In this document: one piece after another, positions 3,034 through 61,567 of the stretch | Layout of the letters: the number at the start of each line of letters is the position of its first letter | Position numbering within the stretch: position 1 is the first letter of the stretch | Assembly (NCBI RefSeq): GCF_010692685.1 | Contig: NZ_JAAHGU010000008.1 | Location: forward strand, 41,619-105,618 | Origin: Okeania sp. SIO2F5 | GTDB lineage: Bacteria > Cyanobacteriota > Cyanobacteriia > Cyanobacteriales > Microcoleaceae | Reading direction: 5' to 3' | DNA: 64,000 bases | The notes under the pieces: model-generated | Database searches by the model: none | What the model was told of the DNA's origin: nothing | What the model saw: only the letters and a program-made list of their open reading frames with translations | Position numbers and translations under genes: made by a program

Positions 3034-4401
3034 TTATCTCTTTCTTCTTCCTTCACTAATAAGTTTTAAACACAACTCCCGAAAATGTTCTCCTCGTTGT
3101 TCAAAATTTTGATACTGGTCGAAACTTGCACAAGCAGGAGACAATAATACAACTTTTGCATCATATTTTTTTGCCAATGCTGCACCTCTAATTACTGCTC
3201 GCTCCATTTCTCCTACTATTTCATAATTATGAAAGTTAATTTTTTGTAGTCTCTTGGCAAAAGTTTCAGCGGCATCACCTATTAATAAAACAGCAGCAAC
3301 TTTTTCCTTAATTCGTCGCAACCAATCATTATCATTACCTTCTTTAGCTTCCCCACCAGCAATTAATAACACAGGTTCAGGTACAGCACTTAAACCAACT
3401 GCTGCTGCATCATAATTTGTTGCTTTACTATCATTGAGAAAATCTACTCCATTCCAAGTGCAAATATATTCTAAACGGTGGGGTACACCAGGAAATGTTT
3501 TCACCGCTTCAGCGATCGCCTCTTTTTCTATTCCTGCTAATTTCGCTACTGCCACTGCCATCAATAAATTCTGCTGATTATGATTTCCCAACATTGGCAG
3601 GGACTCCACAGAAACTGTTTTTTCCCCTCGCGCTACTACCCACCCATCCTCAATGTAAATTCCTTTGGCAATATCTCCCACTAAGTTAGCTTTACCTTTG
3701 ATACTTGTCCAGTGGGCATTATCTCCAAGATTAGCTGCATTTTGACTTATATACGAGTCGTCACTATTTAAAACTTGTGTTTTAGAGCGATTTAATAAGG
3801 CTGCTTTGATATTAAAATAATTTTCTATTGTATGGTGGCGACTCAGATGATCGGGGGTTAAAGTAGTCCAAACACCAATTTGAGGTGCAAGGGTACTAGA
3901 TGATTCTATTTGATAGCTGCTAATTTCTGCAATTACCCAATCTGGTGGAGTTTCTAATAAAGCTAATTCACAGGCAGCATAGCCAATGTTACCACAGGCA
4001 GGAGCATTCAATCCTGCGGTCTTAAAAATTGCAGCAACTAAAGAAGTAGTAGTAGTTTTGCCATTAGTACCAGTTATCCCTACCCAAGGGGAAGATTTGA
4101 GATATCGCCATGCTAGTTCCATTTCTCCAATAGTTTCAATTCCACTTTCTCTGGCGCGTTGGAGTGAGGATATATCCCAAGGTACACCGGGACTAACAAC
4201 GATTAAATCTAAAGATGTTTCCGGTTCAAACGAATAACCTAATTTAACAGTAATACCTTCTTGAGTTAATTGTTTTTGCTGTTGTTCAAGAGAGTCGGAT
4301 GTATTGCGATCGCTCAGTTCCACTTCCCAACCATTTTTCTTGAGCAGTCGCGCAGCAGCAATACCTGATTTTCCTAGACCAATAATATGAGTTTTTGGCA
4401 T
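3034..4401 (-). CDS. murD: UDP-N-acetylmuramoylalanine--D-glutamate ligase.
   Basis: N-terminal [13 protein letters not shown] Rossmann motif and the Mur ligase P-loop [12 protein letters not shown]. Length is 455 aa. Confidence 0.9.
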
Positions 4402-4872: not shown

Positions 4873-5166
4873 ATTTCCTTAACTAAATTTAGTATTTTCT
4901 TAACTAATAGTACTAAACCTACGCATCTAACATGGTGTCATGCGACGCATTATTAAATACCTTTGATAGCATATATTTTAGCCATAATAGCGCACCCTAA
5001 AATTATGAACTTTGAAGAAAGAGTCAGGAGAATGGGGTCGATGGGAATTCTCACTCCACCAACCGCATTTGCACCGCGGGTGACGGTGGGGTATAAAACT
5101 TATAAGGGATAAAGATAAACCTAGGAATAATTCACCTACGTCACAAAAAATTCTATCCGTATTTTC

Positions 5167-7326
5167 CTAACTTTTAACTATTTCTCCAAAGTCTGCCAAT
5201 ACTCGTGCATTATTACGGAGTAACCCTAACAAATTTAATCGATTCTGTTTAATTTTCGGGTCTGGGTCCATTACTAAAACACTTTCCGGCCCATCAAAGA
5301 AATTACTTACAGTTGGGGCAATTTTTGCCAAACCATCTACTAATTGTTGATAATTTCTGGTTTTTTGAGATATTTTTGTTTGAGGTACTAAATCAACTAA
5401 AGCATTATAAAATGCTAATTCTGATTCACTTTTAAACAAGTTTAAATCCACAACTTTTTCAGGTGCAAGTTGTATTTTATCTAACTCACCTTGAGCTGCC
5501 AAACGAGTTGAACGGTTTACAGTTTCATAGATTTGGTCAAGCAGACCATTTTGCCGAATATTTTGTAAGAAAATTGCACGGTTCCGTACATCTAATAAAT
5601 CTTTTAATGCTCGTTCAGTATATTCCGAATCATTATTGCCTAACACCGCATTTACCAGATCGTAATCAATATTTTTTTCCTCTTGTAAAATTGTTTTAAT
5701 TCGCTGCAAAAAGAAGTCATATAATTGGGGCAATAATTCTGATTCTGCTTCGGGATAAAATTTCGTAAAATCTACAGCAATTTGTGCTAATAACTGATGT
5801 AAATTTATCGATAAATCCGCTGACCAAGTAATATTTACCACCGCATTTGCTGCCCGACGTAAAGCGAAAGGGTCTGAGGAACCTGTAGGTAACATTCCCA
5901 ATCCAAAAATACTTACCAAAGTATCAAGTTTATCTGCCAAACTCACAACTTGACCGCTAATACTTTCCGGTAAAATATCTCCAGCACCCCTAGGCAAATA
6001 ATGTTCAAAAATTGCAGTTGCTACAGCTTCATTTTCCCCACAAGCACGAGCATATTTTTCTCCCATTATTCCCTGTAGTTCGGGAAATTCATAAACCATT
6101 TGAGTTACTAAGTCAGCCTTGCAAAGTAGAGCTGCTCTTTCTATATTTTTGCTTTCTTCTTGACTGACTTTTAACTGTTCAGCTATTAACTTAGCTATCT
6201 TAACAATACGTTCGACTTTTTTCCGCACCGAACCTAGTTTAGCTTGAAAAGTTACAGCTTCCAATTCAGGTAAATAACTTTCTAATGGTTTAGCTAAATC
6301 TGCCTTATAGAAAAATTGCCCATCAGCTAATCTAGCTCTAATTACTCGTTCGTTTCCTTTAGCAATAATCTCTGACTTTTCCGGGTCGCCATTAGAAATA
6401 GTAATAAAATATGGCAATAATTCAACTGTTGCTTTAGGAGTTGTTGTGGATTTCAAAACAGGAAAGTAACGTTGATGTGTCACCATAACAGTTGTTGTTA
6501 CTTCCGAAGGCAAAATCAAAAATTCTTCATCAATTTTACCAACTACTGCTGTCGGCCATTCGACTAAATTTGTAACTTCTGCTAATAATTCTGTCGGAAC
6601 TTCTGCTGTTCCTTGAACTTTTTTAGCTACAGTTTGTATTTGTTGTTCAACTTGACTCTTTCTTTGTTGAAAATCTACTTCTATATAAGCTTTTTTCAAA
6701 ACTTCTGCATAATCTTTTGCCTGCTCAATTTCTATAGATTCAGGATGTAAAACTCGATGTCCGTACGAGACACGACCAGAAGTAATTATCTCAGAGCCAT
6801 TTTCTAAATTTATCGGCAATATTTCCCCATCTAATAATGTTACTAACCATCGAATAGGACGAGGAAATTTAATATCTCCATCTGCCCAACGCATAAATCT
6901 TTTACCTTCAAGTTTATTAATCCATTCAGGTACTAATTTTATCAGAATTTCTGCTGTTTGTTTACCCTTAATTTTTTTATTGACGAAAACAAAATCACCT
7001 TTTTCAGTCGGGCGTATTTCCAGGTCTTTTAATTCTATTTCTTGTTTTTTAGCAAAGCCTTCCACCGCTTTTGTAGGTTTACCATCTTTAAAAGCTGCTT
7101 TTGCCGGAGGACCTTTAATTTCTTCTTCTCGGTCTGGTTGTTGAGTAGGTAAATTGTTGATGACGACAGCTAAACGTCTGGGTGTGGCATATATTTTAAT
7201 CCCATCATTTGTTAAGAATGCCTCACTCAAGGCAGTAGGGATAAGTTTTTCCCACTGTGATATAGCTTCAGAGACAAAAGTTGCGGGTAATTCTTCTGTA
7301 CCAATTTCTAATAAAAATGTCGGCAT
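5167..7326 (-). CDS. glyS: Glycine--tRNA ligase beta subunit. The start is probably the internal Met of [14 protein letters not shown].
   Basis: It has the canonical GlyS N-terminus and full length (~720 aa). The listed ORF extends 17 codons further upstream. Confidence 0.9.
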
Positions 7327-7364: not shown

Positions 7365-8510
7365 TCACTAAAGTCAAAAGTCAAAATTCAAAAGTCAAAA
7401 TTTAAAAGTGATATTTTAAGTACTTAAAACTTCTACTATACAGTAATCTCAGCTTATTATTTGACTTCATCATTTACCAACTATTTGTCACATTTTTTAA
7501 GTGAAATGGTATTAGTTAATTAGGGCTTGCTGATTAAATCTAAAAGTATTTACAGATAAAGGTTTTCGCCTTTTTGGAGCCTTTAAAAAGTGCCTGGTTT
7601 TCAGCTCTTCATGCTCAAAAAGGAGCGTATTTTAGGCGCATAGTTAGGCAGAAAAATCAAAGGACAATTCTTACTGCTACCTCCTCGTTCATTCCCTTTT
7701 CTCCTGTCTTCCCCTCCACGGTCGGGGTTAGGGGTGGGTTGTCTCCTACCCTTACCCATAAGACTTTTTCAGCAAACCCTAATTACAACAGTTTACCGAA
7801 AAATTGAGTTTAAAGCTTTCCCCTTCTAATATCAAATCTCACGCATTTTTGCTACATCTTCTTCAGCGGGGGAGTAGGGGAGTGGGTAGGGACGTTGCAT
7901 GCAACGTCCCTACAGGGAGAAGTAAACATAAGAATAATTAACAATAACTGGAGTGCTAATTATCAAAAAAGTTATTCAATCTGTATTAATTACTTAATAA
8001 TTTAAGTGTCATTTAAGTTAAGTATTCTTTTTTCATGCTTGGTATAAAACCAAATATCACACATTTTTGCTGCGTCTTCTTGAAAGCAGGCAATAGTAGG
8101 GACGTTGCATAAGTGGTGGTGTATTGTCCCGCAACGTTTGTTAGGAGGTAGGGCAGTGGGAGCATCTTACTCCCGTGCCTAGTATTCCTTTTTGCTGTAT
8201 ACCATTATGCTTCTAAGGACTATCAGACCTAAGACCGTTTCACTAAAGTCAGAAGTGATACTTTAGGTACTTCAAAGCTAGGCATTGCTGAGGGGCGGGA
8301 TGAATATTCAGTGGGGTGGGTATCCTGCCTGGGGTGAAAATATAAGGAACGGGGAACGGGCAAGATGCCCCCAAACACAAAACTATTAAAATCATCCCGC
8401 ATTTATGCAACGCCCAAAGCTATACTCTACAGTAATTTCAGCTTATTATTTTACTTCATCAGTTACCAACTATTTGTGACATTTTTTAAGTGAATTGGTA
8501 TTAAGACCTA
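7365..8510. repeat. Segmental duplication of ~150 bp of glyS-upstream DNA, at 7365-7520 and 8235-8510. The second copy is split by a ~130-bp insertion. The region also holds palindromes GTAGGGACGTTGCATGCAACGTCCCTAC at 7890-7917 and 8098-8150.
   Basis: Direct alignment by eye of CGTTTCACTAAAGTCA...GGTACTTCAAA and of CTATACAGTAAT.TCAGCTTATTATTT.ACTTCATCA.TTACCAACTATTTGT.ACATTTTTTAAGTGA. Confidence 0.6.
7518..7784 (+). mobile_element. MITE family A copy 1, with TIR AATTAGGGCTTGCTGA ... TCAGCAAACCCTAATT.
   Basis: 16-bp terminal inverted repeats. It has a conserved core (GATTAAATCTAAAAG ... TTTTAGGCGCATAGTTGGGCAGAAAAAT ... TTCTTACT) shared with 6 other copies in the window. Confidence 0.7.
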
Positions 8511-11683: not shown

Positions 11684-12011
11684 AGCAACGCCTAATTAGG
11701 GTTTACGCTCAAAAGTCTTTTAGTAGGGGTAGGAGACAACCCACCCCTAACCCCGACCGTGGAGGGGAATACAGGAGACAGGAGACAGGAGACAACCCAC
11801 CCCTAACCCCGACCGTGGAGGGGAGAAATGGATCGGGAGCGAGGAGGTAGGAGTAAGAATTTTCCCCAGATTGTTCTGCCCAACTATGCGCCTAAAATAC
11901 TAACTTTTTGGGCATGAAGAACTGAAACAGGCGCACTGCAATTCGACCCCAAAAAAGCACTTGTCTTTAATATGTCAATGCTTTTAGATTTAATCAGCAA
12001 CGCCTAATTTT
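11684..12011 (-). mobile_element. MITE family A copy 2, with an internal 40-bp unit duplicated in tandem.
   Basis: The ends are CAGCAACGCCTAATT / AGGGTTTACGCTCA. It has the family core and 2 copies of GGAGACAACCCACCCCTAACCCCGACCGTGGAGGGGA. Confidence 0.6.
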
Positions 12012-13286: not shown

Positions 13287-14282
13287 GATTATTTTCAACC
13301 CTTGATAAATCTCTTTTATCTTATAGCAATTAGTACTTATAGCGTTACGGGTAGGGAGCAAGAACTAGGAAAGAGGAAGCAGGAATGATAGAGAAAAAAA
13401 TGTTTTGATCTCTAATTAAGCAGACATGGTATAAATTACACATAAACTGGGAAGTCGATGGGCAGAAATAAATATAATATGTTCCTAGTTTAGGAGATTT
13501 TATAACTACCTAATACCGGAAATAAAATTGGTATGATTTTCTGAATATTCCACATTCCACATATGAGTATAATCAAGTATTACAAAAACTGGTAAACCGC
13601 TAATTATTTCTATCAAAGTCAAAAAAAATAGTTACCGAAAAATTCAGTTTAAAGCTTCCCCATTTTAGGGTGTAATTTGTGTTTTGATATAAAAAGTGGA
13701 AAGTTATCCAAGCACTTTGAGAACTAAAATTATGGAGTTTTGCATAAAAAGGCTTATGTTATAGAAAAACTCTTTACCTTAAAATAATGGCCTAAAATCC
13801 CCGATTTTAAGGGTATAAAAAGCTGTCGATCTTCGGAGCTTCCTGTAGGGTAGGATGGCTAGGAAACCTGCTCTTGCAGAGCCACTCCGCTAACGCCATA
13901 TCCAATCGACCAAGAGAAAGAATATTTCAGATTTCAAGCCTCTTGTTTCAGCTAGATGTACTGATAACTGATAACTGATAACTGAAATTACTTATACCAA
14001 CTCTCAAAAGTAATGCTTTACTTAAGTAAAACTTCAGTTATTAAATAATTAATACAGACAAAATCCATTTTTGCTAATTAGCAGCTCAGTTAATATTAAT
14101 TATTTTTATGTTTACTCTGTAGGGACGTTACATGCAACGTCCCTACTCCCCCACTCAATAAAATGTAGAAAAGTTTTTGAGAAATGGTATTACATAGAAT
14201 CCGGTTATACAGTATATGTTTATAATTCTATCCACACTTCAATATTAAATCTCCCCCTAACCCCATATTCCCGTCCTGGGAG

Positions 14283-14602
<320 letters not shown>

Positions 14603-24175: not shown

Positions 24176-27100
24176 GTGAGGATAGTCAAGATAAATATGA
24201 AAATACAGAAGAATCAAGAATATAGCTATCAAGTAGGTAATTATTTAGCATTAGAACATCCCACTTATGTTAGACGCTCGGCAGATAAAGAGTTATTTAA
24301 TGCTTTGAAGAAAGGTGAATATTGTTATGTATTAAGTTCTCCACAAACGGGAAAATCAAGTTTAAAAATTAGAACAATACAACTTTTGCAAGCAGAAAAT
24401 ATTATCTGTATTGCTTTAGATATGACTAGAGTTAATAATAAACTTTTGACTATAGAAGAATGGTATGAGCAAATAATTTTAACTTTAGAGAAGACTTTTT
24501 TATTTCCTCGACATTTCCCGGAATTATGGTGGGAAGAAATGGCATATCTGCCTGGGGATGAAAGATTATTTATTTTTATTGAAGAGGTATTGTTAGTTAA
24601 TACTCAAAATGAGAAAATAGTAATTTTTATAGATGAAGTTAATGATGAGAGTGTTGTTAATTCGGGCTTTAGTAGTTTAGGGGTATTAATTGATTATTGT
24701 ATTGAGCAAAGAACAAATAATCCAAAATTTCAACGTTTAACATTTGCTTTGTTAGGAACAACTATACCCGATAATTTAATAGATAGATGTAGATATATTG
24801 AACTTAATAGTTTCAAAAAAGAAGAAGTAGCTCATTTAGCGCAGCTATTTAAAGGCATAGTTAAAAAGCCACTACAAGTTATAGAAAAAATATTATATTG
24901 GTCGGGTGGACAACCATTTTTAACGCAAAAACTGTGTCAAATAGCGATTGACTATCTGGGAGAAAGAAGAGGAGAAGAAAATTATAATGAGATAGCTTTA
25001 ATAGAAGATTTAGTAAAAATTTGTGTTATAGAAAACTGGGATTCACAAGACTACCCAATTCATTTCAATAAAATACAAAATCTTTTGCTGAAGAATATAC
25101 AGAAATCTACCAGTCATTTAGAAATATATCAACAAATATTAAAACATGGTAGATTAAGACCGCCTGGTCAAGATAATCAAAAATTTAAAAATGATGCGAT
25201 CGCTAATCATCAATGGGAAATTAAAGAGTTATTGAGGTCTGGTGTAGCGAAAATAAATCGTGGTTTTTTAGAGGTATACAGTCCGATATATGCAGAAATT
25301 TTTAATCAAGAATGGGTACAACAATATTTACCAACAGTAACTACAGCTCCTCAAACTAATCCTCAAATATTAGAATTAAATGACCAGGAAAAAATATCTC
25401 TAATGGTATCTGATTTCTCTAATGAAGAAGGAAGAAGGAAGAAGGAAGAAGGAAGGAATAAAAAGTGGATAGGGACTCAAACCCTAACTAATTATCAAAA
25501 CCCTGTAGACGGCGGGGTATTAAACCCAAAAGAAAAAGATAATAAAAATAATAATTCAAATGAAATTCAGGTTCAGCAACAACATGAATTAGGGGAAATA
25601 ACAGCACATAAAAATCAGAATAATTCCCATAATATTCCGCTTAAATTACTAGAGAAACAACAGGAGAAACCAGTACAAAAAAATCAGAATAATCCCAATA
25701 ATATTCCGCTTAAATTACTAGAGAAACAACAGGAGAAACCAACAGAAAAAATTAATAACAAAGTTCAGAAAAAACAGATAGTTCGGAAAAAAGTCAAAAC
25801 ATCTTCAAATCAGCAGAATAAACTGAAACTAGGAGTGGCGGGTTTAGTTATAGTCTCAATAACAGCAATGACAGTAGTTGGTTGGGCAACTAAACTTTTT
25901 AAAGATACACAAAATCAACTTCAAAGAGCAGAATATCAACTAGAAAAAGCACAGTACGAACTTCAAGAAGCACAAGAAGGTACAAAACTAGAACACAAAG
26001 GAATTACTGCTTTAAGAAAATTTGAAATTGCAGAAATAGAAGCATTACTATCAGCAATGCAAGCTGGAAAAGAACTAAAAGAATTAGTTGGAGGCGATCG
26101 CCCACTTCAATATTATCCAGCTACAAGTCCCATATTTGCCTTACAACAAATACTCAACAATATTCACGAGAAAAATCAAATTCCCAACGTCAAAAAAATT
26201 ACCATGAGTCCTGATGGCCAACTACTCGCCACAGTTAACAATGATGGTACAGCCAAAATCCTCAAATACTCAGGTCAGTCTGTAGCTCAATTAAGAGGAC
26301 ATCAGGGCAAAGTTTCTCACATTAAATTTTCACCAGAAGGAAACATTCTAGCTACAGCAGGAGATGATAGTACAGTTAGAATCTGGGATTTTCTGGGTAA
26401 GCAGCAAGTAGAACTAAAAGGCCATGAAGGTCAAATTTGGCAAATTACTTTCAGTCCTGATGGTAAATATATAGCTACAGCAGGAGAAGATGGCACTGCA
26501 AGAATTTGGAATATATCAGGCAAGAAAATAGCGACTCTCAAAAAACATCAAGGTCGAATCTTAGATGTCACATTTAGCCCTGATGGTAAATATATAGCTA
26601 CTGCTGGATGGGATGGGACTGCGAGAATTTGGAATCGATCCGGAAGACAGTTGGCCAGACTCAGGGGGCATAAAGGTAGCGTCGAAAAAGTAATATTTAG
26701 TACAGATGGTCAACGTTTAGCCACTGCTGGATGGGATGGCACAATTAGGGTTTGGCGACGTAGTTCCGGTAAACTACTAACCAAACTTAAGGGAGGTGAA
26801 GGCGGGATCTGGAATGTTAGCTTTAGTCCGGATGGCAAAAGTTTGGCTACAGCAGGAGAAGATGGATCAGTCGCGATCTGGGATACTTCAGGCCAAGTAT
26901 TATCAAAACTTCCTGGACATCAAGGAATTGTCACCAGTGTTAGTTTTAGTCCAGATGGTGAACGTTTAGCTACAGCAGGTAGTGACGGCAGTGTGAAAAT
27001 TTGGAACAATAATGGTAATTTGTTAGCCAATCTTAGAGGACATCAAGGCAGGGTTTGGGAAGTTAACTTTAACGCTGATGGACAACGACTATTAACTTTG

Positions 27101-28075
27101 GGAGAGGATGGTACAGGTAGAATTTGGTCACTAGAAGGTAATCACGAGACAACTCTTCAGGGAAACTCCGATATTTTTGGGTCAGTAAGTTTTAGTTCTA
27201 ATAGTCAGAAATTAGCAACAGCAGCAGTTGATGGTACTGCCCGCATCTGGGATATTTCGGGAAAACCTTTAGCTCAATTTAATGGATATCTGGGAATGTT
27301 TGGGGATATGAGTTTTAGTCCTGATGGTCAACGTCTAGCTACTGCGGGAGATAGTGGTCAGGGGAGAATTTGGAAGATTTCAGGAGAAGAGTTGATAGAG
27401 CTAAAAGGTAAAAAGGGCAGAGCAAAGCAAATTGGTTTTAGCCCAGATGGGCAACGTTTAGCAACGGTGGGAGAAGATGGTGTTGCCCGCATCTGGAATA
27501 ATTCTGGTCAACAGTTGGCTGAGTCAAAAGGGCATAATGGTCGTGTGTTGGATGTGGTTTTTAGTCCAGACGGACAATATATTGGTACTGCTGGAGAGGA
27601 TGGTATTGCCAAAATCTGGGATAGTTCTTTTCAGCTTGTGTCAGAATTGAAAATTCTTTCAAGTTGGGTCGAGAGTATGGCTTTTAGTCCATCTGGAAAG
27701 TACATAGTGACGGGAGATAGCAATGGGGTAGTCAAAATTTGGGATTTTTCGGGGAATCAAATTGCTGATCTGAAGGGCAATATAGGTAGTGTGAATAATT
27801 TGACTTTTAGTGCTGATGGGGAGCAGGTGGCTAGTATGGGCAAAGATGGAATGGTAAGAATTTGGGATATTACTGGACGTCAATTAGCTCAATTTGAGAA
27901 TGCTAAGGCTTTAAGTTTGGATGGTAAATATGTGGCAACTTTGGTGGATAATAATTTACAGTTGTGGCGCGTGAAAGGATTAAATGATTTGTTGAAAGGT
28001 TCTTGTGATTGGCTTCAAGATTATTTTATTACTCATCCCAAGGTGAAGGATGATTTAGAAATTTGTGATATGTAG
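24176..28075 (+). CDS. AAA-like NTPase, repeat-rich linker, single TM, 14 WD40 repeats and a Cys-containing C-terminal tail.
   Basis: Walker A SSPQTGKSS and Walker B IVIFIDEV. TM is LGVAGLVIVSITAMTVVGWATKLF. There are 14 IW(D/N)xSG-type WD repeats. The tail is SCDWLQDYFITHPKV...EICDM. Confidence 0.85.
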   Translation: MRIVKINMKIQKNQEYSYQVGNYLALEHPTYVRRSADKELFNALKKGEYCYVLSSPQTGKSSLKIRTIQLLQAENIICIALDMTRVNNKLLTIEEWYEQIILTLEKTFLFPRHFPELWWEEMAYLPGDERLFIFIEEVLLVNTQNEKIVIFIDEVNDESVVNSGFSSLGVLIDYCIEQRTNNPKFQRLTFALLGTTIPDNLIDRCRYIELNSFKKEEVAHLAQLFKGIVKKPLQVIEKILYWSGGQPFLTQKLCQIAIDYLGERRGEENYNEIALIEDLVKICVIENWDSQDYPIHFNKIQNLLLKNIQKSTSHLEIYQQILKHGRLRPPGQDNQKFKNDAIANHQWEIKELLRSGVAKINRGFLEVYSPIYAEIFNQEWVQQYLPTVTTAPQTNPQILELNDQEKISLMVSDFSNEEGRRKKEEGRNKKWIGTQTLTNYQNPVDGGVLNPKEKDNKNNNSNEIQVQQQHELGEITAHKNQNNSHNIPLKLLEKQQEKPVQKNQNNPNNIPLKLLEKQQEKPTEKINNKVQKKQIVRKKVKTSSNQQNKLKLGVAGLVIVSITAMTVVGWATKLFKDTQNQLQRAEYQLEKAQYELQEAQEGTKLEHKGITALRKFEIAEIEALLSAMQAGKELKELVGGDRPLQYYPATSPIFALQQILNNIHEKNQIPNVKKITMSPDGQLLATVNNDGTAKILKYSGQSVAQLRGHQGKVSHIKFSPEGNILATAGDDSTVRIWDFLGKQQVELKGHEGQIWQITFSPDGKYIATAGEDGTARIWNISGKKIATLKKHQGRILDVTFSPDGKYIATAGWDGTARIWNRSGRQLARLRGHKGSVEKVIFSTDGQRLATAGWDGTIRVWRRSSGKLLTKLKGGEGGIWNVSFSPDGKSLATAGEDGSVAIWDTSGQVLSKLPGHQGIVTSVSFSPDGERLATAGSDGSVKIWNNNGNLLANLRGHQGRVWEVNFNADGQRLLTLGEDGTGRIWSLEGNHETTLQGNSDIFGSVSFSSNSQKLATAAVDGTARIWDISGKPLAQFNGYLGMFGDMSFSPDGQRLATAGDSGQGRIWKISGEELIELKGKKGRAKQIGFSPDGQRLATVGEDGVARIWNNSGQQLAESKGHNGRVLDVVFSPDGQYIGTAGEDGIAKIWDSSFQLVSELKILSSWVESMAFSPSGKYIVTGDSNGVVKIWDFSGNQIADLKGNIGSVNNLTFSADGEQVASMGKDGMVRIWDITGRQLAQFENAKALSLDGKYVATLVDNNLQLWRVKGLNDLLKGSCDWLQDYFITHPKVKDDLEICDM

Positions 28076-28080
28076 TTAGG

Positions 28081-28130
28081 AGGGAAGAAGAAAGAAGGAA
28101 GAAGGAAGAAGGAAGAAGGAAACTAGAGCA
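28081..28130. repeat. STRR array GGAAGAA / GAAGGAA x6.
   Basis: Read directly. Confidence 0.8.
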
Positions 28131-44687: not shown

Positions 44688-44998
44688 AATAATTAGGGTT
44701 TGCTGAAAAAGTCTTATTGGTGAGGGTAGGAGACAACCCACCCCTAACCCCTCCGGTGGAGGGGAATACTGGAGACAGGAGACAACCCACCCCTAACCCC
44801 TCCGGTGGAGGGGAGAAATAGGAATGAGCGAGGAAGTTAGGAGTAAGAATTGTCCCTGAATTTTTCTGCCCAACTATGCGCCTAAAATACGCTCCTTTTT
44901 GAGCGTGAAGAGCTGAAAAACAGGCACTTTTTTTGAACAAAAAAAGGCTAAAACCTTTATCTGTAAATACTTTTAGATTTAATCAGCAAGCCCTAATT
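44688..44998 (-). mobile_element. MITE family A copy 3, with its internal 40-bp unit duplicated.
   Basis: TIRs are AATTAGGGTTTGCTGA / TCAGCAAGCCCTAATT. The core is conserved. Confidence 0.7.
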
Positions 44999-45845
44999 AA
45001 GATTTAAAGCCTCTACGCATCAAAACAAGAAAAAAAAATCTTTTAGTCAATCCTCTGATTTTAAGGAAAGGGAGTTGTTAGTTATTAATTACTAAAATCA
45101 GATTTTCTCTACATAAAATATTCATTAAATTTCTCCCTATATTACAACTAAAAAAAATAGCTTTAATTCTGACATTTTTCATAATTCATAATTAACTTTT
45201 AATGTGGAGTCATAGAACTAAAATTTTTTAGTACAGCCATAAAAATTCAATACTTTGCAGGTAATAGTTTGAACTCAAGCTGATAGATGATAGCTGAGTG
45301 CCTATAGATAAAGTATAAATAAATATAGAGAAATATAGAGTACGGCAATTGCTATTACTCTTTCAGGAAAAACCGAACTTAAATAAATATTAAACCTTGA
45401 TAACTTGAAAGAAGTAAAGTCAAAAATTAAAATTCAGCCCGATTGATTAGTTACTAATATCTGGCAGTAGTTTTTTTATAAAAAATGTTGCCAACTAGGA
45501 GATGGGTTGAAACTAACTTCTACTTAAGAAAGCATAACAATCTTATCTGAGTTGATGAATATTGCATCTGAAAAATCAAAAAAACACTTGAAACTAGATA
45601 TACAGCAGATTAGGTTGTATATGAAGTACAGATGTTAACGAGGGAATTTCTACAGTATGGGCATCTTGCCCGCTATGGGTGTGCCTCACACCTGATGAAA
45701 TCTGATGTATATATAAAATATATATTACTTTTGACTTTTAAGACTTGACATTTATCATTAATGGTTTTCTTATAATTAATCATTAAGCAATCATAATATT
45801 ACATTCACATTAATCTGAAAAATATTAAAATAAGGAGATAGATAA

Positions 45846-46974: not shown

Positions 46975-47645
46975 TAAACTCAGGACTTACGCAAATTGAC
47001 TTTTAACCCACCATCTGTAGGGGCGAATACCATTCGCCCTCGCTATATGTAGGGCTTGCTGAATAGCATTGTAATCAATACCTACAAATGCTTCCAGGGT
47101 TAAATAGGGCTTACCGATCTAATCTAAAAGCATTGACATATAAAGATTTTAGCCTTTTTGGGGCTTTGAAAAAGTGCGCCTGTTTCAGTCTAAAACGCTC
47201 AAAAAGGAGCGTATTTTAGGCGCATAGTTGGGCAGAAAAATTCAGGGACAATTCTTACTCCTAACTTCCTCGCTCATTCCTATTTCTCTCCTCCACCGGA
47301 GGGGGAGGGGCGAGGGGTGGGTTGTCTCCTGTCTCCAGTATTCCCCTCCACCGGAGGGGGAGGGGCGAGGGGTGGGTTGTCTCCTACCCCAGCAAAAAGA
47401 CTTTCCATACGCAAACCCTAAATATTGCTGAAAAAGTACAAGGTTTTTGGCTCAATTTGCATCAAAATGCTAATATTTTTCCCCTGACTATCAGAAAATT
47501 TGGCCGTAGCAGATAGTCTAAACTTTTACCTGTTGCCTATCATCACCATCAGACTTTTTCAGCAAACCCTAAATATAGTGAGGGCGAATGCCATTCGCCC
47601 CTACAGATGGTGTTTAAAAGGTTGATTTGCGTAAGTCCCGATCTA
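46975..47645. mobile_element. Composite nested element. A family D palindromic element is split at its centre by a MITE family A copy (copy 4, 47050-47573), which itself has partial TIR duplications.
   Basis: Outer ends are AGGACTTACGCAAAT...TTTGCGTAAGTCC. The inner arms are CTGTAGGGGCGAATACCATTCGCCCTCGCTATAT | family A | ATATAGTGAGGGCGAATGCCATTCGCCCCTACAG. Confidence 0.6.
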
Positions 47646-57449: not shown

Positions 57450-57740
57450 AACTAAAAGGGCAGATTTTAAGTATTATTTTCCCCTCTTAATTGGCATCCA
57501 ATTATTTGATATTATTTTGTACTTTTTATTTTGGGTTTAATATCAAATCCGATAGCATCGGTGCTATTCAGTGTTAAATATATGTACGGGTGAACGGCCG
57601 TTCACCCCTACTCCCATACTCAATAAAATGTAGAAAAATTTTTGATAAATTGTATATTAATTCCGGTCTAGACGGTGTTGACAATTAGTTGAGGTTTGTA
57701 GACAAGAAGTAGCTTGTTGAAGACTATCCCCATCCACTTT

Positions 57741-57790
57741 TTTCTTCTTCCTTCTTCCTTCTTCCTTCTTCCTTTTTTCTTCCTTCTTCA
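57741..57790. repeat. STRR array TTCCTTC x6.
   Basis: Read directly. Confidence 0.8.
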
Positions 57791-57796
57791 AGACTT

Positions 57797-60842: not shown

Positions 60843-60961
60843 TAATTAGCACTCAGCAATCGGCTTTTTGATGTTTATGAGTGCTATATAGATATAGTTT
60901 TGATGAATAGCTCTTTAGCTCATATCTACTAGATTAAGCTATAACCATTTTTTTTTGTTAA

Positions 60962-61198
60962 TTATTGCTTTGCCGATTAAATCTAAAAGCATTGACATAT
61001 AAAGACAAGTGCCTTTTTGGGGTCTTTCAAAAGTGCAAAAGTTTCAGCTCTTCATGCTCAAAAATTTGATATTTTAGGCGCATAGTTGGGCAGAAAAATC
61101 ATTCTTGCAATTCTTACTCCTACCTCCTCTAAATTCTCCTGTCTCCTGTCTCCTGTCTCCTAACCCCTACTAAAAGACTTTTTCAGCAAACCCTAATT
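60962..61198 (+). mobile_element. MITE family A copy 7. Its right TIR ends 12 bp before the MIF-like gene start.
   Basis: Core and right TIR TCAGCAAACCCTAATT. The left TIR is degraded. The internal cassette is TCTCCTG x3. Confidence 0.6.
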
Positions 61199-61210
61199 AT
61201 TGATTGATTT

Positions 61211-61567
61211 ATGCCACTAATTAAAGTTCAAACTTCTGTTTCTCAACCAGAAAAAGATAAAATTGACAGCCTCTTAAAAAACCTTTCCTCTGGCATGGCG
61301 AAGCATTTTGGCAAACCAGAATCTTATGTAATGACTACTTTTGAATCAGATATTCCTATGACTTTTGCTGGTAGTAGTGATGAACCTGTCTGCTACATGG
61401 AGATTAAGAGTATTGGTAGTATGAACCCTCAGCAAACAAAGGGGATAAGTCAAGATTTTTGTCAACAAATTAATCAGGCTTTAGGCGTACCAAAAAATCG
61501 AATTTATATAGAATTTTCTGATGCTAAAGGTTCGATGTGGGGCTGGAATAGTTCCACATTTGGTTGA
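61211..61567 (+). CDS. Macrophage migration inhibitory factor (MIF)/tautomerase-superfamily protein.
   Basis: Begins MP (catalytic Pro-1). MTFAGSSDEPVCYMEIKSIG and the C-terminal WGWNSSTFG are close to eukaryotic MIF. Confidence 0.85.
   Translation: MPLIKVQTSVSQPEKDKIDSLLKNLSSGMAKHFGKPESYVMTTFESDIPMTFAGSSDEPVCYMEIKSIGSMNPQQTKGISQDFCQQINQALGVPKNRIYIEFSDAKGSMWGWNSSTFG

Follow-up and report, generated by a model that had tools for sequence, protein, structure and literature searches.

An in-frame copy of a dispersed repeat element in the linker of an AAA_35–WD40 protein of Okeania

The window analysed here is a stretch of 64,000 nt from Okeania sp. SIO2F5, and our subject is a small dispersed repeat element that lies within one of its genes. 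The host protein has 1292 aa from the annotated start at M8, while the mechanical open reading frame (ORF) begins at 24176 and has 1299 aa. From the N-terminus it consists of an AAA_35 domain, a linker of ~150 residues, one hydrophobic helix, a coiled coil and ~14 WD40 repeats. The N-terminal AAA_35 match (E=3.5e-14, 52.8 bits against a cutoff of 27) and the C-terminal WD40 match (E=2.6e-131, 423 bits against a cutoff of 27, in 12 stretches) both pass the Pfam thresholds for a multidomain, STAND-like (signal transduction ATPase with numerous domains) cyanobacterial protein. The identical Okeania protein, found in metagenome-assembled genomes (MAGs) such as SIO2G4, is annotated by NCBI as a single "AAA-like domain-containing protein"; three proteins encoded next to it likewise have exact matches in Okeania MAGs. 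The linker is 53% K, E, N and Q and its mean hydropathy of 0.328 lies under the Uversky boundary of 0.432, so by composition and hydropathy it is predicted to be disordered, as the initial annotation of this DNA had proposed. That annotation took the host for a member of the Nostocales; it is an Okeania, of the Oscillatoriales.

Within the linker lies a 120-nt copy of the element, exactly 40 codons, encoding (N)EEGRRKKEEGRNKKWIGTQTLTNYQNPVDGGVLNPKEKDN (Table 1). It opens with a heptamer array of period 7 (4.6 copies, 100% matches, Tandem Repeats Finder, TRF), whose translation reads NEEGRRKKEEGRNKKW, and its 28-mer core recurs at 14401-14428 with 25 of 28 positions identical (0 expected by chance, 100 shuffles). 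The copy at 14.3 kb is collinear with the in-ORF copy: TTGAAGAAGGA, heptamer array, ~45 nt, 28-mer. The array and the 28-mer are the two ends of one element and not separate features. The initial annotation had counted three repeats that keep the reading frame, namely five units of GAAGGAA at 25423-25460, the 28-mer and a tandem duplication. All three are indeed in the frame of ORF 24176/24197..28075, but since the first two form a single 120-nt element there are two repeat features and not three. The partner of the 28-mer was correctly placed in intergenic DNA, inside the rejected ORF 14071-14436.

Table 1. Features of the host gene and copies of the element in the window (TM, transmembrane).
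Feature	Position	Strand	Evidence
Host gene: AAA_35 NTPase, low-complexity linker, TM helix, coiled coil, WD40	24197..28075	+	ORF list, Pfam
AAA_35 (PF14516) match	24245..24931	+	Pfam, residues 24-252 of the 1299-aa ORF
In-frame copy of the dispersed element, subfamily B	25423..25542	+	anchored profiles; nhmmer E=2.6e-19
Heptamer array GAAGGAA/GAAGAAG, 5' module of the element	25424..25455	+	TRF
Most conserved core of the element, 28-mer GTAGACGGCGGGGTATTAAACCCAAAAG, encoding VDGGVLNPK	25505..25532	+	match to copy at 14401-14428; core-anchored profiles
Segment D (NKNNNSNEIQVQQQHELGEITAH), lineage-specific low-complexity, not dispersed	25543..25610	+	blastn-short
Two tandem 69-bp units R, local duplication	25611..25748	+	TRF; identity count
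Predicted TM helix LGVAGLVIVSITAMTVVGWA, closing the linker	25829..25894	+	read from translation; hydropathy 0.60 vs 0.33 for linker
Degenerate intergenic copy between murD-like and glyS-like genes	5012..5118 (approximate)	+	nhmmer
Intergenic copy, subfamily A, GGAGACA heptamers, 3' end AAA TGA TAA	14315..14439	+	nhmmer E=1.2e-24
Degenerate intergenic subfamily B copy, nested insert in hairpin 1, 3' end approximate	57650..57791	-	nhmmer

We searched one genome per species for the exact 23-nt core GTAGACGGNGGGGTATTAAACCC and found at least 120 stretches in 11 genomes, nearly all of them Okeania and relatives. Among the matches listed, 59 are in O. hirsuta and one is in a "Nostoc" MAG; the others listed are in six more Okeania, Dapis, a "Lyngbya" MAG, a Microcoleaceae MAG and a tar-biofilm MAG. 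The element-bearing loci sampled amount to 1.08 Mb, and compared loci are labelled with L-numbers (L001, L122 and so on). The ends of the element were set from anchored profiles of 103-133 copies. Conservation extends from TTGAAG to GATAA and drops to background level beyond both ends (133 copies anchored at the core, 77 at the array start), so that the family has sharp ends and unrelated flanks. A typical copy, with a modal length of 123-124 nt, consists of TTGAAGAAGGA, a variable heptamer array, a unit of ~85 nt with three hairpins and a terminal GATAA. Arrays of 17-101 nt (median 33) stand upstream of the conserved unit in 77 of 103 copies.

The copies fall into two main subfamilies. Subfamily A has GGAGACA or GGAGTCA heptamers and the 3' end AAA TGA TAA, and includes the 14.3-kb copy; the stop codon of mechanical ORF 14071..14436, in which that copy lies, is the element's own TGA. 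Subfamily B, with GAAGGAA heptamers and the 3' end AAAAAGATAA, includes the in-ORF copy. Both consensuses hold a long open frame in the orientation that proteins use. The window contains four copies in all (nhmmer), and the proposal that the two originally seen belong to one family is borne out by the genome scan. Another array, GGAAGAA x5.6 at 28083-28121, starts 8 nt past the stop codon of the host gene; the element's conserved unit is missing after it.

Folding of the subfamily A consensus gives three hairpins (-19.3 kcal/mol, z -6.4). Across 58 distinct aligned copies 93% of cells are paired, as compared to ~50% with slid partners, and one pair is GC in 25 copies and AU in 24, a compensatory change. 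Helices 3 and 4 overlap the core used for collection and their invariance is therefore not informative. Hairpin 2 is a 6-bp hairpin with GTAG as its loop (CACCGT-GTAG-ACGGTG). Erosion has left the in-ORF copy with a fold of -7.7 kcal/mol (z -1.2), as compared to -14 in the B consensus. Hairpin 1 is found in both orientations (loop ATTCTAA in 31 copies and TTAGAAT in 4; ACTCAAA in 6 and TTTGAGT in 2), and the two peptide types of the orthologous linkers, WMGTQT and LLGFES, differ by exactly this flip (L122 4560-4650; linkers of L125-L130).

Relatives of the element occur in Nostoc-labelled sequence at L131 1500-1640 (plasmid pC052_A of Nostoc sp. C052) and L116 2760-2920, so the family extends beyond Okeania. 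In one of them the conserved core is interrupted by a 31-nt insert, and an annotated hypothetical protein of 78 aa, whose stop is the element's TAG, overlaps this copy. Copies in O. hirsuta and Dapis sp. BLCC M229 (L033, L043) have the same length of 148 nt and identical 12-nt flanks on both sides, which could reflect an orthologous site, a transfer or cross-contamination.

About 90% of the sampled copies are intergenic. Twelve of the 137 core-bearing copies are internal to stop-free spans of 230-2298 codons, and 12 of 12 are in sense orientation in the frame that reads VDGGVLNP. The element is in frame in at least 10 other, unrelated proteins. Two of them are giant orthologous TPR proteins that contain 6 and 9 copies, with a tandem block of four copies in one but not the other, and a further TPR protein has 1279 aa. 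Histidine kinases are also among the hosts, the HATPase_c Pfam match of one being divided by the insert. In a PAS-GAF-GGDEF protein the insert lies within the GAF domain, and in a DUF1688 protein it cuts the Pfam match into two parts. Inteins serve as hosts too, in a ThyX and in an epimerase-like protein. The peptides of the TPR proteins are divergent (VDDRVLNLK, VEGGILNSK, VDSEILNPE). Intergenic subfamily A copies end in TGA TAA in the VDGG frame and the in-ORF copies are without those stops: four in-ORF copies of subfamily A share the 3' end CCG CAA AAA AAA GAT AA, in which one T is deleted and both stops are gone, and which is not seen in intergenic copies.

Three further possibilities concerning these reading frames were rejected. 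The window copy has not lost TGA TAA by mutation, since subfamily B natively ends in AAAAAGATAA and its consensus is open in the VDGG frame. Use of the element as a C-terminal tail that supplies the stop codon was dismissed because at most 116 codons precede the element's TGA, the 116-codon case being the rejected ORF of the window. In the reverse-strand in-ORF cases L101, L084, L108 and L074 the element is not internal but lies right at the N- or C-terminal limit of the open frame.

Since the element is structured and also sits inside conserved domains of other proteins, one might suppose that it is excised from the transcript or the protein in the manner of an intron or intein and is absent from the mature protein. 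Splicing would not require all 12 internal copies to be free of stops and in frame, the in-ORF window copy has lost most of its folding potential, and Rfam returned no match for the whole window at the gathering threshold and none for the 14.3-kb copy at E up to 1. Group I and II introns and inteins are far larger than 120 nt or 40 aa, and the terminal residues of an intein are missing as well. We consider the chance that the element is removed next to negligible.

The same set of proteins bears on the idea that the element peptide has been domesticated, that is, kept for a function, for example as a charged spacer beside the membrane or as a short binding motif. Conservation of one frame in 12 of 12 internal copies of unrelated proteins would fit this, as would the stop-free 3' variant shared by the four in-ORF subfamily A copies and not seen intergenically, and the retention of at least one copy in all eight Okeania orthologs of the host gene. 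However, close orthologs differ in how many copies they have and where (the window is without the second copy), the TPR proteins contain freely diverging peptides and no feature unites the host proteins. Intergenic copies preserve the VDGGVLNP core just as well, so its constancy is accounted for by conservation of the DNA. Domestication is thus quite unlikely, and the peptide is more probably a neutral spacer than a functional one.

For the comparison of orthologs, syntenic loci were obtained from six more Okeania genomes by way of the downstream thioredoxin-family gene, and L122 came from the core scan, which gave eight genes in all. All eight are intact (1292-1389 aa, without internal stops). 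Their N-terminal 360 residues are 92-96% identical to the window protein and the differences in length are confined to the linker. Each has one or two copies of the element (nhmmer), and none was detected by nhmmer in the three closest non-Okeania homologs, L001, L002 and L003, whose NTPase domain is 60-78% identical and whose linkers contain repeats of other kinds. The presence of copies in all Okeania orthologs and their absence from the outgroups indicates that the element entered the linker before the sampled Okeania diverged.

The orthologous linkers are variable strings of three modules, the element (E), segment D (~25 aa) and unit R (23 aa). The order is E-D-R-R in the window and E-D-R-E-D-R in SIO1I7; SIO2C9 has an extra 33-codon block, one E and three R, and the number of R units ranges from 1 to 3. 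D follows every element copy. The SIO1I7 linker also has a palindromic mini-element of 27-28 nt nested in its heptamer array, in frame. A 28-nt palindrome of this kind, (C/T)ATCCCCCCTTGCCCCCCTTTGAAAGGGGGG, occurs four times in the 1.08 Mb, always nested in a GAAGGAA-type array (L122 4191-4218; L017 2321; L126 4380; L059, minus strand, reverse-complement offset 4413); in 3 of the 4 cases it is within an ORF and in frame, encoding IPPCPPLKGG or similar.

The remainder of the window linker is lineage-specific low-complexity sequence. By blastn-short, D matches only itself and ortholog L122, and across the sampled loci the stretch before the element, D, R and the tail occur only in the host gene and its ortholog. 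The duplication, which had been described as a perfect repeat of 57 bp, has a 69-bp period (2.2 copies, 91% matches over 25602-25751, TRF). Its units, 25611-25679 and 25680-25748, are of 23 codons each and identical at 64 of 69 positions, with a longest exact repeat of 44 bp; the duplication is local and not dispersed. The claim that the linker is assembled from genomic repeat material therefore holds for the ~40 of its ~150 residues that come from the dispersed element, and not for the rest.

The linkers could be thought not to be coding at all, 25400-25830 being a spacer that separates an AAA_35 gene from an independent TM-WD40 gene. Most element copies are intergenic, and in the metagenomic locus L003 a TGA in a linker of ~45 aa ends the AAA part, and the TM-WD40 part follows in a different frame (6100-6200). 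This locus may be a split gene, a pseudogene or an assembly error. Against two genes stands the single unbroken frame in the eight Okeania orthologs and L001 across linkers that differ by up to ~100 codons, which means that every insertion or deletion was a multiple of three. In addition, ~140 AT-rich codons free of stops would be unexpected by chance, and NCBI annotates a single protein. We regard a two-gene arrangement as highly improbable. At L001 the contig reverses within the gene at ~2234-2290, the WD40 part being on the opposite strand and starting from the same sequence, and this is probably an assembly chimera.

Transfer might also have run the other way, coding sequence from this or another gene having been picked up and spread as a repeat, with the linker as the source. 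The long open frame in both subfamily consensuses, in the orientation used by proteins, would be expected in that case. But ~90% of copies lie between genes, heptamer modules are found generally in the intergenic DNA of this genome, hairpins with compensatory changes are a feature of a nucleic acid and not of a protein, the weakest structure is found in this in-ORF copy (z -1.2), and the segment is absent from the outgroup homologs of the gene. An origin in the gene is very unlikely, and the direction of transfer was presumably from element to gene.

We have here a dispersed family with sharp ends, absent from the outgroup homologs of the host gene and recurring in the same frame in unrelated proteins. 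The element is evidently dispersed and mobile. Direct repeats of 7-10 nt flank only 3-5 of 85 copies (10-nt repeats flank 3, ~0.1 expected), which indicates that there is no general target-site duplication, and 53 of the 85 copies are without flanking direct repeats. The only match to a TnpA probe in the sampled loci is a degraded IS200/IS605-like tnpA/tnpB remnant (L050 4625-5512), and even this remnant is interrupted by an element copy. Directly upstream of the AAA-WD40 ortholog lies an IS605 OrfB/TnpB gene in KiyG1 (L126 1559-2866) or its remnant in SIO3B5 (L127 505-1224); neither is present at the corresponding place in the window.

Our preferred interpretation, to which we give a probability of roughly 0.8, is that 25423-25542 is a tolerated, translated insertion of a selfish element similar to the Rickettsia palindromic elements (RPEs). 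It would be a relic copy of a non-autonomous dispersed element of ~120 nt that, in an ancestor of the sampled Okeania, reached fixation within the disordered cytoplasmic linker of an AAA_35-TM-WD40 protein, and that is translated with the rest of the host protein. More generally, such a repeat would insert widely, copies that break genes would be purged, and those in a tolerated orientation and phase at permissive sites would persist and be translated, the permissive site in this case being the disordered linker. The element's survival at this site may be due to a length divisible by three, to a sense frame that is hydrophilic and contains no stop, and to the absence from the linker of any fold that an insert could disrupt. 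Thereafter the linker would have kept changing through local tandem duplication and deletion of the modules E, D and R, with selection removing all frame-breaking changes.

Several points weigh against this interpretation. There are no terminal inverted repeats (the best inverted match of the terminal 35 nt is 3 nt, no better than in shuffles), a target-site duplication is absent in ~80 of 85 copies, and a tblastn search with an IS608 TnpA probe, run on the 1.08 Mb of element-bearing loci, found no linked transposase. No pair of filled and empty sites at high identity was found that would fix the exact insertion boundaries and the mechanism. At least one copy is present in every sampled Okeania ortholog; with no copy-free ortholog, the insertion is dated only against homologs of 60-78% identity whose linkers cannot be aligned. 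Collection by an exact 23-mer biases the census toward young or conserved copies. The stop and frame change in L003 imply either that a split gene is viable or that the contig is in error. Finally, translation of the peptide is suggested by conservation of the frame alone; if the linker element is translated, the tryptic peptide WIGTQTLTNYQNPVDGGVLNPK is predicted.

Even so, each of the four rival explanations fits the data less well than tolerated insertion. The central idea of the initial annotation, that a mobile repeat in a disordered linker creates new coding sequence, was right and indeed understated, as seen from the dispersed sharp-ended family, the outgroups without the element and the varying copy number, even though several of its specifics were wrong.

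We found no account of this element family in the literature searched, and compared it with known repeat systems. According to the passages on RPEs in two later papers, these elements (Ogata et al. 2000) are non-autonomous repeats of ~100-150 bp with potential for secondary structure, which occur in intergenic DNA and in frame in many unrelated genes, where the encoded peptide is hydrophilic and conserved and its presence at permissive positions is thought to be tolerated (PMC10969869; PMC3733652). The Okeania element likewise is a small dispersed repeat with unrelated flanks, found in unrelated genes with the frame kept and a conserved peptide encoded. It may be regarded as RPE-like in function, an analogue and not a member of the sequence family; given the different phylum, membership in the families RPE-1 to RPE-10 is implausible. 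It differs from RPEs in its host, a free-living filamentous marine cyanobacterium with a large, repeat-rich genome, in its variable 5' heptanucleotide array and in its three local hairpins in place of one overall palindrome. In addition, only ~9% of the sampled Okeania copies are in ORFs, as compared to nearly half in some RPE families.

Repetitive extragenic palindromic (REP) sequences are mostly extragenic short hairpins, some of which lie within ORFs and add residues (PMC3733652). Intragenic and GTAG-tagged REPs with REP-associated tyrosine transposases (RAYTs) have 20-40 bp and an unpaired GTAG at the end of the stem (Di Nocera et al. 2013, PMC3733652). The Okeania element shares a conserved GTAG, but here it is the loop of hairpin 2 within a 120-nt unit and not an unpaired terminal tag, and no RAYT or Y1 transposase was found next to copies with the TnpA probe mentioned above. 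[quoted passage not shown] Like these, the Okeania element is small, non-autonomous and dispersed; unlike them, it has neither terminal inverted repeats nor a regular target-site duplication. Overall the Okeania pattern appears, by analogy, to match that described for RPEs and for a minority of intragenic REPs and MITEs (PMC10969869; PMC3733652).

The initial annotation had attributed the array to the short tandemly repeated repetitive (STRR) sequences and the route to new coding sequence to STRR and small dispersed repeat (SDR) elements. The STRRs are heptanucleotide arrays of heterocystous cyanobacteria, with three classical units, CCCCAGT, TTGGTCA and CAACAGT. The Okeania element resembles them in having a tandem array of period 7 in intergenic DNA, and resembles both STRRs and SDRs in that small hairpin repeats are nested in other repeats and related copies occur in Nostoc. 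In contrast, GAAGGAA is not among these classical units, the host belongs to the Oscillatoriales and is not heterocystous, and the array is a fixed module of a larger element. Elhai and colleagues reportedly presented eight SDR consensus sequences in 2008. SDRs have 21-27 nt and are reported only in Nostocaceae (PMC5861425). The array and the route were thus rightly recognised, while neither the STRR nor the SDR label is established.

Further repeats in the window include dispersed intergenic families of 60-170 nt, direct and inverted and of 82-98% identity, which form mosaics with heptamer arrays at 7515-7900, 11693-11937, 44690-45000, 47100-47385 and 60958-61211. A murD-like ORF (3034..4401, minus strand) ends in ...SEGRRKR, its last codons (3034-3068) running into a heptamer array, and this end may be another repeat-derived coding sequence.

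A further-reaching possibility is that the element has become adapted to life inside genes, so that it spreads from gene to gene and is not just occasionally tolerated. The stop-free hydrophilic sense frame and the finding of the stop-free 3' variant only in ORFs would fit, though we consider this unlikely. The 5' heptamer array, with 7 nt equal to 1 modulo 3, could, through slippage, adjust the frame and so rescue insertions whatever their phase. If the element were adapted in this way, Okeania would host selfish "coding" repeats that add charged loops of ~40 residues to proteins, including loops within HATPase_c, GAF and intein domains.

The element has consequences for Okeania genomics in that it breaks assemblies, many copies being at contig ends, and gives rise to spurious small annotated ORFs such as 14071-14436. 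The best-documented case of small selfish repeats colonising genes in frame is that of Rickettsia, a bacterium whose genome is reduced and whose life is obligately intracellular. Here such colonisation is seen in free-living marine cyanobacteria with large genomes, and a similar mechanism of protein evolution has been thought conceivable in other prokaryotes (PMC10969869). Eight orthologs that differ in the number of inserts, a giant TPR pair with 6 and 9 copies and copies in well-understood domains provide comparative material that permits direct tests of the tolerance of foreign peptides and of the growth of linkers.

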